A stretch of DNA of 57,533 nucleotides, counting the filler, from Jimgerdemannia flammicorona (Eukaryota): the NCBI GenBank assembly GCA_003990765.1. It is 3 parts of 3 records of this genome, joined end to end, with 100 filler letters (N's around TTAATTAATTAA, not from the genome) between each part and the next. Parts side by side here need not be neighbours in the genome. Positions count along the whole stretch, not along the records: positions 19,213 to 38,323 come from RBNJ01002027.1; 2 more parts are not named here. One strand, written 5' to 3'. The notes beneath the pieces are model-generated. The model was given only the letters and a program-made list of their open reading frames with translations, was not told where the DNA came from and did no database searches. Below, one piece after another: positions 22,201-28,908 of this stretch; the stretch's first letter is position 1; every line of letters starts with the position of its first letter. A program made the translations under genes and the position numbers.

Positions 22201-23455
22201 CTGCTGACAAAAATGCTGAAAACGGTGGTACTGGGTAGCAATGCTGGAAATGGACTTGCTGACAAAAGCTGGGTTCTCACAGCTGATGGGCAGTCCTCTA
22301 GAGGGAATAGTACCCTTTGTCCGCGGCAGGCAAATCTTGCTGGGTTGCAATTTCTTCTTCATTATATCTCTCCTCAAAGGGGGGAAGTGCCAGCCAAGAG
22401 GTGAGGGGGTAGAAAAGTGGCCAGTCATCTTCAACAATATTTTCTAATCCCTGAACTGCTTGAATGTGGACAGAGGACTGGTAGACTCTCTGTTGCTCCT
22501 TTTCTTCTTCTGAAGACTTGTCAGTTTCAGTGTCAGAGGGGGTTTCTTCAGGGGCAGGGTCTTGGGGTTCTTGGGCTTTCTCTTCAAAGACAGGGACCTC
22601 TTGGGCTACTTCTTGATTCAGTTCCCAAATGATGAGATGTGAATTGTGGCTGACAGGGTGGTGGGTGGTTGGGGTAGCTCAAACAGGTGCTTCTATGGTA
22701 ATGGGTGGTCCTTCAAATATCTCTATAAGACTCATTAGGTGACCTTGATGGTTGTCTCGGAGTGGGGTAGTGTGGAAACCTGGTTGAGTAGGTTCGGTTT
22801 GTTGGCTTCCTACGGCAATGCGGTTGCTGCCAGTAGAGTTGGCTACTTCAGATTCTATCCAGTCAGCATCTTCAGTTGAAAGGCGGGAGAGGCTGCCAGC
22901 CATTACTCCTTGCAAGTGTGCTATAGCCCAGGGAATATGGCAGAAGATTTGGTGGACATGGAGGGCTCTTTTGATTAGTCGGCTGGTGGTTAACATTTCA
23001 GCAATGAGGTCTTCCTGGTCGCCTTCTTGAGTCTCATTGCAAAGGCAGTGTCCGATTTCATAGTCATGCCAAAGGGTCATTCGTTTGGTAGTATCTTTGA
23101 GCTATTGGGTCATTATATACCAGTAGTTGATGAAGTGTCCAAGGTCCTTGGTGTAGAAGTTCAAGTGTTTGGAAGTATCTGGGCACCAGATGGCCTTCTT
23201 GATAGCTTCAAAGATCAGGGTCTTTGGGCCAGGCAAAGGGGTAGAGTGGCAGGAGGTCTGGTTGGTTTGGCGAATGGGAGGCATTGTGTGGTGGGTACTT
23301 GGTTCTTTGGTGCTGATCCCTGAGGTGGAGTATGGTTCCTTAAATAACGTGGTCTTCATTTTGGCTCAGATCATCTTGTCTTCTTTTGGGATAATCACCT
23401 AATAGGTCAGGCTGTCTATTTGATTGTCATGCCATTATGTCTTCTGATCTTAGCA
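19213..23455 (-). mobile_element. Ty3/Gypsy element A fragments: 3' accessory ORF, PPT, partial LTR, leader and gag
   Basis: gag 19213-20010 (YLQKFHGADNEDIKEFFGEIEVQA...MSQAVNETPKSFY); LTR-like ~21828-22366 shares ctgaggtttattcactctaag with the 27941 LTR; polypurine tract complement tctctcctcaaa at 22367; ORF3 homologue 22679-23450. Confidence 0.75.
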
Positions 23456-26400
23456 GTCACCGGTACTCCATTGTCAATTGTGTACGTCACAATACCTTCC
23501 AACAGTAAATGGTCTCAACTCCACATCCATGGGCCCCAGTTCTCCTCCCCCTCATACCCCTCTACTAAAGTTCAATTCTCCTTGCACTATCCACCACTCC
23601 TCACCAAAAGCCTTTGTAATGAATCCTCCTGCTTTCATCTATGACCATCATCATAAGCAGATTACCAGTCACTCCATGAGAGGAGTACCAGACTTCCCAC
23701 ACTCTCTGTATGAGTGGTACCCACTCTTGGCCCCTTAACCTGTTCGTTCTCTTCAGCTACCATGCTCTTAGGCAATATAGGTGACTGGTGAAGTCTACTA
23801 TGTCTAGTCCGCCTCTGTCAACATGCAGAGTCAGAACCTTCCAGCCTATCTGACTATGCTGTCTGGCCTAAATCTACAATTTTGCCATCTTCAGAAGTTG
23901 CCTGACTACCTATACCAGGAAGTCCAGATGATATCTCACATACTACAGCTTTGGCAGCCAATACACATTCAGCACCATCACCCTTTCTGTCAAGGATATA
24001 TGCTGACTACCCCACCTCAAGAGAATATTCCCCAATACTAGCATCTGCTATTCCCATCACACATAGGGCAGAAGGGACCCATATATCAAAAAATAGATCC
24101 TTAAGTACTGGACTGATTCTTCTGCTAGAACTACTGTTTCAATTATGTCACTGCTAACTATTCTGCCACCTAGTACCTGAGTCTCTCTCATATCATTCCA
24201 CAGTCCTTCTTAATTCCCCAACATCCTCTAATAAGCTCAGTCCAACCACTATGTCATCCACAAAAGCCCCCACCTTCCAGTTAATTCTCAAAATATCCAA
24301 ACTCCCAATTTGATACCAGATCCTACCTAATAGGGGCTCCAAGGAAAGGACATATAGGATGGGTGACAATGGATCTCCTTGTGGCACCCTATGACCTAGC
24401 AGAAAGGTCACACCCCTGTGTCCATTTACTATCAATGCTGCTTGACTGTTTCTCAGTAGCCAGATTATTGACCTCCTAAACTCCAGGGGAACTCCCATAT
24501 ATTTCAGCTCTCCCTCTAGCCAGACCCTTCTCACTCTGTCATACATCTTCTTCTGATCCAGAAACACTAACCAGCCATCAACCCCAGCTGCCTGGGCCCC
24601 TTCAATCACCCCATGGACTCAGGCAGTTCTATCTTGAATTAACTGACCACCAACAAATCCCCTCTGCTCTACTTCTAGTATCTGTTGAGTGATCTCCTAT
24701 AGCTTAGTTATCAAGATCATCATCACTAGCTTGTGGTCTATATCCAGGAGCATGATCAGCTTCCAGTTCTTCCAATCTTCTCTTCTTCTCTTATCTTTAT
24801 AGAGCAAGGAGAACAGCTCTAGGTGATGGCCCCCAATCCAAGTTCTGGATTGAAGGACCTCATCTCTCATTACCATCATCTCCTCCAATACCACCTCCAC
24901 CCCAGCCATCTGTTTCCAAAAATTCCAGGGAAGCCCATCCTCTTCTGGAGCTATCTCCTTACTTGTCAAAGCTAAGACCTCACATACTTTCTCCCCCTGC
25001 ACTGGGTCTCCTAATGTCCCTAGGCCCAGAGCTGGGTCCAGATGCCAATCCTCCAACTACCATCAATGTTCAAGGCATCCTCACCCCCTTCATCATCACT
25101 CTATAAATTTCACCAGTAAGTCCTCAGCAATCCTAAAATCTTAGGAGTCCCTGTCACCATCTCCCCATCCTCTTCCAAAATGCCATCTACTGCTGTCTGA
25201 TTTCCCAAGCTTGAAGCAACTGTGAAAGAAATCTGGTAGGTCTCTCTCCCTTCTCCAACCCCTGTCACTGCAGCCTTACCACCATCCCCTTCAGCTGAAC
25301 CTCCTACTCCATTCATAACACTTTCTTTAGCTCATTGACTTCTTTTTGTATCTACAGAATTCACCAATTAGTTGTCTCCCAATCCTCCAGCAACCACACC
25401 CATCTCCCAAGAAGTACTGCCAATCTGTGAAGCCCATAGCACTTACTGCCACTGCTGAACACTCCTTTCTTTCTCTGCCTTCCTCCAGTACCTCTGAGCA
25501 CTCGATTTCAGCCACTTCCAGCGATCCCCAATCACCTATCCCTGTTTCCACCACCTACCAATCTTCACAGTAACTTCCACCTCCCAGTCTGTCCATAAGG
25601 AACCATTCTCCAATAAAGAAGAATTCAGTCACCAATGTCCAGACCCATCCCCACTTCCCTGAAATCTCCCACTTCTCATCCCACTTCTCCTTCAATATGT
25701 CCAGTAGTTTCTCCTCCCCATCTACCCCACTTGGGATGCCATACTGAGAGTAGACTTTCTCATCCATTTTGACATCCTCCACCATACTGCTCAGTTCCTC
25801 CTCACTTGATCCACCCTGGGCCACATCCTGGGCCATCTCACACTCCTCTGCCCAAGCATGCTCCATTAGTCCAGCACCCCCTTCTCCTGCACTGCTGCCT
25901 GTCACACCTCTTCTCAACTTCTCCAACAGCTCCTTCAGAATTTGCCTCCCCTACACCTTCTCCCAGGCCACCTGGTCCATCCTGATCTTCTTTCCATCCA
26001 CAATCTCCACCACTGTCTTGGCTTCATACTCTTTTCAAGCCAATTTCCTCCTCTCCACTGCTCCTACCATCCTCAAGAGCCTCCAGCAAGTCTTTCTCTT
26101 CCTCTGGTGTCCCCTTCACCTGTGAAACCTTACATTCAACTGAACCCCACTTAAGGGTTGCTGGCCAATTCCTTGCCTTCCCAGTATTCTCCCTCTCAGC
26201 CAGCCTCACTCTGATGTTGACATCTCTTATCCAGAGTTCAGTACTCTCCCAGACTCTGAACCCAATGTTTATGATTGCCTCATATTCCTTGACCACCTTT
26301 ATAATCAACTCTCTGACCTTCTCCCTCGATATTGTAGGAAGATCTAACACCATCAACTTCACCACTCAGGGGTCCCAGCATATGCACCTGGCCATAGGGA

Positions 26401-27120
26401 CCACTACTCAACCCACTACTACCCCCTTCTCCACAGCCTCCAATAATAATGCCTCTTTCTCAAATCCAATCTTGATCCCTTCTTCCCCTTCAAGAACTTC
26501 ACTGAAGCCACCTTCTTTACCACCTGTATCACTAGCTCTAAAATCATTCTTACAGTTACTGCTAAGCCTTGGAAGCACAATGTAATAGCAAATTCTGACC
26601 TCAACTTTTTGAGTAATAGTGCTGACACCATGCCAGTCATGTCATCTGCCAGGTCTCTGGGCCTTGTACCCTCTTCCTGTTCTGATCTACCAATACTCTT
26701 ATATCTGGATTTTTTTTTCAGATCTCCAGTCACAGCTCTATCAGTAGTTACATCTCCAACCCCTATTCCCCCCACCCCCCTACTGTCCAACCCTCCCATG
26801 GGGGCCTCTCTATATCCCCCAATTGAAGCTATTGATGTCTTTCCTAGTCCCAACCAACTATCCAGACTAGATGCCATTCTCTCTATCTTGACCTTATTAG
26901 CCAAGATTGTTCTCTCTCCTCCTTATTGCCTCAATCTGCCCCTCCCTCTACCACCAATGTCATGACCAATCATAGAAGGCTCTGGAATCCCTAAATCATC
27001 TCTCTGCCTCCTTCCTACATACTGCTAGTTGAAGGCACTACTGCCCCCCTGGTCAATATACTTACTGGTACATTTGTTGCTATCTATATTGATAGTCTCC
27101 TTTCACCAAAAATGTTGTTA
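23455..27120 (-). mobile_element. Non-LTR retrotransposon (L1-like LINE) relic: ORF1 plus ORF2 RT
   Basis: RT motifs APEEDGLPWNFW, WKLIMLLDIDHKL, FLDQKKMYDRV, VPQGDPLSPILY and AFVDDIVV (24193-25056); ORF1-like VKLMVLDLPTIS...WPATLKWG (26024-26365); many stops and deletions; boundaries approximate. Confidence 0.85.
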
Positions 27121-28405: not shown

Positions 28406-28458
28406 TCTTCCTCCTGAATAGGTGATCTGTCTCAGGAGTATCCTATTTACTCAAATTC

Positions 28459-28908
28459 CTAGGCTTCTACAATTTGTATTTCCTTATACTGTGCGATTTG
28501 TATCATTACATCCTTCCAATATTGTCTCTTGACATATCCAAAGTCTCCTGGGGTTACTCCTTGGAAATGGGCTAAGGCTGACTCATCATCTTTGAATAAC
28601 TTGTGCACTCTTTTTGCAAATATAATCTGAGTGTAGGAGAGCTGACATTCTCTGATCCAGTCTTCTTTTCCCATCTTTGGTCTTGAATTCAGTGGCTGTC
28701 CCAAATTGAAGTATTTCTGGAACTTAGTTCAGTTCTGGTAGGCCTTGAAATGTGAGATTCATGACAAATGTGTTTGCACTATACTCTAGATGCTGTCAAA
28801 GGATTCTTCTATTGTTGGTGGCTCAGTGGAACACCACTGTCTTTCAATGGCTTGCTGGGCTGCACTAGTAATTCTGAGGGCAGCAGTATTACTTCATTGA
28901 CTAATCAT
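28459..28908 (-). pseudogene. Gypsy accessory ORF3 of unknown function downstream of integrase
   Basis: ATG overlaps the integrase end; single frame with a few decay stops; AKRVHKLFKDDESALAHFQGVTPG is homologous to 22679-23080. Confidence 0.65.

Follow-up and report, generated by a model that had tools for sequence, protein, structure and literature searches.

Accessory genes in Gypsy elements of Jimgerdemannia flammicorona

The window, that is, the whole stretch of 57,533 nucleotides analysed here, joins three contigs from the 231-Mb, 35,354-contig assembly of Jimgerdemannia flammicorona. Host genes with introns are found at both of its ends (YEATS, phosducin, GST, Hsp20 and eIF3c), and its repeats and elements are strongly depleted of CpG (observed/expected 0.03-0.48, versus 1.03 in a gene-rich stretch). 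An earlier note, made from the sequence alone, had described in two Gypsy elements, here called A and C, a conserved ORF at the env position, immediately before the polypurine tract (PPT). Both reading frames lie where it had placed them, on the minus strand, with the motifs it quoted; the window holds a third copy of the gene as well (Table 1).

Element C is a Ty3/Gypsy LTR retrotransposon, with TG...CA LTRs, a target duplication, a primer-binding site, a PPT and the order PR-RT-RH-INT. Its pol region gives Pfam matches to rve, RVT_1 and dUTPase; the gag, protease and RNase H labels come from motifs recognized by eye and from position, the protease piece having no Pfam match, and gag is broken by a DNA transposon. 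The ATG of the accessory ORF overlaps the last integrase codons in 18/18 copies, and the window copy carries premature stops at codons 5, 41, 50, 60 and 150. The order integrase, ORF, PPT, LTR recurs in all 20 fetched copies (chosen among 150 listed matches so as to favour long contigs and to cover a range of identities), so that for element C the location immediately before the PPT stands.

For element A it does not: there the ORF follows the PPT and lies in the U3 of the LTR. Among 20 fetched A regions, pol lies upstream in five and gag downstream in six, the rest having neither or being cut or nested. The shared sequence begins between -259 and -271 relative to the core in all 18 copies examined and, in the window, starts sharply at a TG (position 23491); a purine tract precedes the LTR only in the five pol-bearing copies; LTR ends, located in 15 of the 18 copies, give a length of 1970-2587 bp; and solo LTRs carry the ORF, with 4-bp duplications in all five for which both ends were found. 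The clean TG start, the placement of the purine tract and the solo-LTR duplications together put the A gene inside the LTR. Tandem elements sharing an LTR are ruled out by the ORF-carrying solo LTRs with target duplications, and a LINE inserted into the LTR by the clean start at TG. In the window, this LTR is the 5' one, with the primer-binding site and gag after it.

Within this LTR, the A ORF precedes the main promoter, as judged from a core common to the A and C LTRs, whose TATA-like and polyA motifs presumably serve as the main promoter and polyA signal. The start of the ORF was set from the N-termini of relatives because in-frame ATGs also occur upstream. The window copy is interrupted by premature stops at 23102-23104 and 22679-22681; the latter had been taken for the end of the ORF, and the frame continues beyond it to 22298. 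The tandem-repeat array in the A U3 is a candidate set of target sites.

Table 1. Features of the window that bear on the accessory genes (positions along the whole stretch)
Feature	Position	Strand	Remarks
Decayed family B LTR	11610..13177	+	third accessory gene copy, core about 11921-12313
Element A gag-like frame, cut by contig end	19213..20349	-	no Pfam match
Primer-binding-site-like stretch after A LTR	20885..20904	-	3' of LTR end in 5 gag-followed copies
Element A 5' LTR	20905..23491	-	2587 bp; accessory gene in U3
Main LTR TATA-like and polyA-signal core of A (putative)	21828..21881	-	89% identity to 28115-28169 of C LTR
Degenerate tandem-repeat array in A U3	21950..22290	-	27-28 bp unit and multiples; limits approximate
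Element A accessory ORF	22298..23284	-	~130-aa core and acidic tail, 328 aa from inferred ATG
TATA-like box of A ORF	23341..23346	-	62 nt upstream of inferred start; 17/17 copies
Element C 3' LTR	27941..28405	-	TG...CA, flanked by CTAT
C polypurine tract	28406..28415	-	
Element C accessory ORF	28447..28908	-	153 aa in uninterrupted copies
Element C gag-protease-dUTPase-RT-RNaseH-integrase	28901..35800	-	degraded; upstream limit approximate
TATA-like box of C ORF	28989..28994	-	86 nt upstream, within integrase coding sequence (D-I-K codons)
Element C 5' LTR	35907..36374	-	92% identity to 3' LTR, same CTAT target duplication

Distribution of the gene among element families

The ~130-aa domain occurs in at least six families of this genome, one of them a chromovirus. 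Families B, D, E and F were found by local profile searches of fetched loci; the first-look candidates, of which 150 were scored in each family, numbered 1285-6048 per family and are not copy numbers. The family B LTR of the window, absent from the earlier note, has no flanking gag or pol matches. Among 20 fetched B loci, the gene lies in an LTR with pol and a PPT upstream in nine and with gag directly downstream in five, a sixth having gag after an insertion; three of the four solo LTRs with both ends seen show target duplications, and the PPT found 5' of family B LTRs is the same as that of C. The chromovirus, family D, has the gene in an LTR that starts at -288, after a PPT, with 5' and 3' LTR copies on one contig. 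In family F, the ORF lies 3' of the integrase in seven of eight loci and is followed by a purine tract; family E is old. The one outside locus obtained, L150, belongs to an unrelated metagenomic chromovirus (a relative of P0051 with about 17% identity to C; P0051 was picked for its long contig on record and not for its context) and shows a chromovirus integrase, a purine tract, a TG and, about 210 bp in, the ORF. Both D and L150 carry a separate chromodomain on their integrase.

Thus, in families A, B and D the gene is encoded by the LTR, in U3, downstream of the PPT; the env position holds for C and F and fails for A, B, D and the metagenomic chromovirus.

Homology and database searches

The two ORFs had been said to align over ~130 aa. 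They are homologous, but the direct C-A protein pair aligns over 61-64 aa only (BLASTP E 6e-5), a score reached by 4 of 5000 shuffles; profile-profile comparison of C and A gives a probability of 86% and E 5e-6. An HMM of 38 metagenomic relatives, which excludes all sequence of this genome and yet is not fully independent, its members having first been found with a joint profile, gives the window copy of C 66.9 bits (130 aa) and that of A 45.6 bits (103 aa), against maxima of 6.7 and 4.6, respectively, among 300 shuffles. Since the relatives' HMM matches both C and A, homology extends over the longer domain. Across C, A, B, D, F and E it yields 25-69 bits, with best shuffles below 7.

A profile of 16 natural copies retrieved 55 proteins among 1.84 billion representatives, from which the repetitive false positives P0037 and P0063, together with some fragments and close copies, were dropped. 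Curated Pfam gave no match for the window ORFs, the 16 aligned copies or any of 52 members; in a Pfam search of 50 proteins (49 relatives and full-length A), matches over the cut-off were confined to the dropped P0037 and P0063. No PHROGs family matched more than 2 of the 52 members, nothing in the PDB fell under E 0.02 by sequence, the ESM Atlas returned unnamed clusters or weak named rows, and word-indexed protein searches returned close relatives only. Twenty relatives that were looked up come from metagenome-type sources and are named "hypothetical protein" only; some may resemble abundant Glomeromycota hypothetical proteins. As far as the literature and databases could be searched, the family is undescribed: the literature covered, which takes in few subscription papers, holds no description of it, although Figure 3 of PMC2864245 marks an "add. 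ORF" in some element that could concern a relative.

Purifying selection on the ORF

Pairwise dN/dS of the C ORF is 0.09-0.18, similar to that of integrase, RT and dUTPase (0.13-0.31). Because C-to-T decay can bias dN/dS, 0-fold and 4-fold sites were compared as well. Their transversion ratio is 0.17 for C, 0.10 for the A core and 0.05 for F, as against 0.19 for integrase and 0.08 for RT as reference genes, and shifted frames of C and the A core give at least 0.9, except for the antisense frame that shares third positions. By transversions the constraint is weaker in the B core (0.54), the D core (0.84) and the tails (0.44 and 1.40), where transitions give 0.34-0.48; the pairs compared are not independent, and the A, B, D and F copies were top protein matches. 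The accessory ORF was under purifying selection, which supports the idea of a functional accessory protein, conserved and, in C, with dN/dS not near 1. One selected protein family sits at the 3' ends of these Gypsy elements: its gene falls between integrase and PPT in C and F, and within U3 in A, B, D and the metagenomic chromovirus. The family and its unusual U3 location are real, and a promoter and a helix-turn-helix (HTH) of its own are probable, as judged from sequence motifs and a structural model.

A TATA-like box upstream of the gene

In all six contexts, a TATA-like hexamer lies 62-88 nt before the ATG: at -62 in A (17/17), -85 to -88 in B (21/21), -86 to -88 in C (18/18), -75 to -79 in D (12/12), -79 in F (3/3) and -80 in L150. 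Control windows contain the hexamer in 0-6% of cases. In C, the integrase residues I-K are encoded as ATA AAA in 18/18 copies, so that the box is made by synonymous codons; the same residues of the family B integrase read ATC AAG or ATC AGA in seven of nine cases, the other two matches being off-site, and family B, unlike C, has the box of its gene in the LTR. The codon choice of the C integrase is the strongest sign of a putative internal promoter, although the pattern was defined after inspection of the data. The accessory gene probably has its own promoter, and it is quite likely that the protein would therefore be translated from a short transcript whose 3' end is set by the polyA site of the LTR. 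The in-LTR copies, even solo LTRs, would then be self-contained units.

The ORF and U3 as a module

Between subfamilies of C (17 copies), the ORF has diverged far more than pol. Its distances track those of U3 (rho 0.92, p 0.0005), with values of 0.03-0.24 against integrase, RT, gag and R-U5, a correlation that adjacency alone can explain. Between families, the integrase tree groups B with C and the ORF tree groups B with A; the AU p of 0.031 refers to 18 of the 52 rows and to a group named after the first tree. Tandem arrays lie in U3 below the gene in A, B and F, are weak in C and are not seen in D, in a survey that left out the F locus L130. Palindromic operators were considered as a general rule and rejected, palindromes being in excess over shuffles in B and C2 only.

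Predicted fold

The AlphaFold model of the protein is confident and all-helical, without strands; its N-terminal part consists of two long helices, and a basic helix is present. By hydropathy alone, none of the 52 members has a 19-residue window exceeding 1.6 (maximum 1.47; 1.02 in full-length A). This upholds the earlier view that the protein has no TM segment and is not an env, and the model without strands and the lack of Pfam matches agree with its not being a chromodomain. The top four fold matches of the core are HTH-DNA complexes of the ParB type, with weak Z scores of 4.0-4.7 (5.4 in a second look); such folds (VirB, SopB, ParB, KorB, Noc) rank at the top in two structure comparisons and share the helix arrangement over 71-77 of 86 residues. 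No sequence link to ParB-type HTH proteins was found when single members were compared with Pfam and PHROGs and the profile with PDB sequences, and full-length fold searches gave nothing clear. The N-terminal CTP-binding ParB/Srx domain is absent (two long helices, no Pfam match), and the protein is not a whole-protein ParB. We consider it likely that the last 85 aa of the core fold into an HTH built like the DNA-binding core of ParB, SopB and KorB; the nucleic-acid-binding role, a speculation of the earlier note, gains support from these fold matches. DUF3102 (PF11300), with weak Foldseek rows (E 1.5-2.2, TM 0.36-0.51), has 0 candidates in the genome. Outside the core, A, B, D and F have an acidic C-terminal tail, as do 15 of 19 long-tailed relatives; C has only a short tail.

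A self-encoded regulator of the LTR and its alternatives

Transcription of LTR retrotransposons is generally assumed to depend on factors of the host. The best reading of the data, to which we would give an even chance, is that the protein is a self-encoded HTH regulator that activates the element's own LTR, in the manner of foamy-virus Tas. The protein would bind sites particular to each family in the U3 that directly follows its gene, and would switch the main LTR promoter on, with the help of the acidic tail where there is one, and promoter, gene and target U3 would move between lineages as one cassette. The broader proposition, that Gypsy elements of this fungal lineage encode a sequence-specific factor with a ParB-like HTH in a swappable promoter-gene-target LTR cassette that has moved between chromoviral and non-chromoviral elements, is offered more tentatively.

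The protein could instead be a sequence-specific anti-silencing factor that binds the repeats in U3 and either lifts or prevents DNA methylation or heterochromatin. The precedent is VANC, an anti-silencing accessory protein that is encoded by VANDAL transposons and paired with fast-evolving tandem motifs; VANDALs are plant DNA transposons, and no family match links the two systems. The strong CpG depletion of the elements (0.03-0.48 versus 1.03), the family-specific U3 arrays of A, B and F and the fast joint divergence of gene and U3 would all suit such a role. CpG protection of U3 was nevertheless rejected, since CpG retention in the U3 arrays does not exceed that in pol of each copy (0.26 versus 0.37 in A, 0.10 versus 0.15 in B, 0.38 versus 0.30 and 0.15 versus 0.21 in C). 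The anti-silencing role suggested in the earlier note thus finds no support and appears unlikely, even though decay after the death of a family could hide the footprint.

We also regard as rather unlikely an RNA-binding factor that helps to export, translate or package the genomic RNA, like Rev or the CERV protein of Cer1. An all-helical protein with a basic helix would fit, as would a common history with U3, which belongs to the 3' end of the RNA as well, and CERV sets a precedent in an LTR retrotransposon (PMC10309623); the best fold matches, however, are binders of double-stranded DNA, and acidic tails suit transcription better. Fairly improbable, too, is a self-repressor in which the same HTH binds U3 and dampens the LTR as copies accumulate. 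It draws on the same fold evidence, with the repressor KorB among the matches, on the lack of a long acidic tail in C, and on the rise in dose with copy number that solo LTRs would bring; it has to contend with the acidic tails of A, B, D, F and 15 of 19 long-tailed relatives and with the very high abundance that the families reached (1285-6048 first-look candidates each, which are not copy numbers). That the protein helps integration by tethering the integration complex to chosen DNA is very improbable: target duplications of the ATAT, ATAG and CTAT type in A, B and C and the abutment of the C and F ORFs on the integrase end speak for it, but chromoviruses with a targeting domain of their own carry the gene too, and the ORF tracks U3, not integrase. 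An env-like or chromodomain protein, or a non-coding chance similarity, for which the position after pol in C and F might be quoted, is scarcely credible and already largely refuted, given 0/52 hydrophobic segments, no Pfam match, an all-helical model and purifying selection.

Comparison with known systems

A protein gene inside the LTR, as here, is known from MMTV, where sag lies in U3 and hence in both LTRs; Sag, however, is a membrane superantigen, whereas the present protein has no hydrophobic segment. For the self-activator reading, the parallel is foamy-virus Tas/Bel1, which, as described in PMC517496, binds DNA, has an acidic activation domain at its C-terminus and acts on the LTR and on an internal promoter. 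The likeness lies in a 3' accessory gene with a second, here putative, promoter (PMC517496); the differences are that the host is not a vertebrate, that there is no env and that the gene is often wholly inside U3, and no link to Tas/Bel1 in sequence or fold emerged from the searches made. The comparison is one of analogy, and membership in Tas/Bel1 or any named family is not claimed. According to the parts of PMC7264820 and PMC3485330 consulted, additional ORFs of LTR retrotransposons, namely, env-like sense ORFs, the antisense ORFs of Grande, RIRE2 and Retand, and ORF0 of Retrosat2, often lie between pol and the 3' LTR; for some of them, a promoter of their own and regulatory roles have been proposed or described. 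The likeness to them is a conserved extra ORF in most copies. Their roles are mostly unknown, as stated in the same part of PMC7264820. With a small protein for which the model is confident, matched variants of U3 and a putative promoter written into integrase codons, the present family makes such a role open to testing.

If the broader proposition of a swappable cassette is true, the control exerted by each family would be confined to its own copies, a very large number of solo LTRs would act as self-contained regulatory units, and regulation in the style of complex retroviruses would have arisen separately in retrotransposons. A self-activator, if that is what the protein is, may also help to explain the expansion of elements in a heavily CpG-depleted repeat landscape. 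For annotation, since these LTRs are coding, solo LTRs yield many "hypothetical proteins".

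Structural features of the Gypsy families

The target duplications of families A, B and C, Gypsy LTR retrotransposons that share a ~130-aa accessory ORF with the chromoviral family D, are 4 bp long and mostly ATAT, ATAG or CTAT; hence, the sequences of these duplications suggest that insertion of the three families involves a target preference. The location of the dUTPase differs between the families, namely, it precedes the protease in family D and lies between the protease and RT in A, B and C. Domains of this kind have been described (PMC2864245).

In families B and A (loci L097 and L042, both outside the window), a spacer of 350–380 bp is kept between the integrase end and the PPT. 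This spacer holds a partly open frame of about 60–100 codons, possibly a further small ORF. In family D, GCTGAGTCA is repeated in the leader (L110:470-765, a locus outside the window), and the downstream U3 contains GACTCAGC; these motifs resemble AP-1-type sites.

Genomic surroundings and other mobile elements

The elements are accompanied in the window by other mobile sequences, tandem arrays and host genes (see table); no tRNA genes were found within the 57,533-nt window. Specifically, the gag of element C is interrupted by a DDE_3-matching DNA transposon, the inverted ends of which are 97% identical, and the A LTR is directly adjoined by a degraded non-LTR-type element with a very low CpG observed/expected ratio (0.03). 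The element with paired repeats resembles one at L148, outside the window, in which RT-like frames are present; by its motifs, the element may be Penelope-like.

Features of the window and of one outside locus (L144)
Feature	Position	Strand	Details
Tandem arrays	1-670 and 37370-38320		23-bp and 9-bp units
Host genes	39000-57533 and 5600-9000		YEATS, phosducin-like, GST, Hsp20, pyridoxal-dependent decarboxylase, eIF3c, alpha/beta hydrolase, glycoside hydrolase 31
Element with paired repeats	13236-17729		direct and inverted repeats, 330-500 bp
Decayed gag piece	18049-18893	+	C-related (69%)
LTR end	18979-19111		C-related; end of first contig
Degraded non-LTR-type element	23492-27100	-	RT match
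dUTPase	31316-31867 (element C) and L144:4325-4861 (family D)		
DNA transposon	34156-35760		232-bp inverted ends, DDE_3 match
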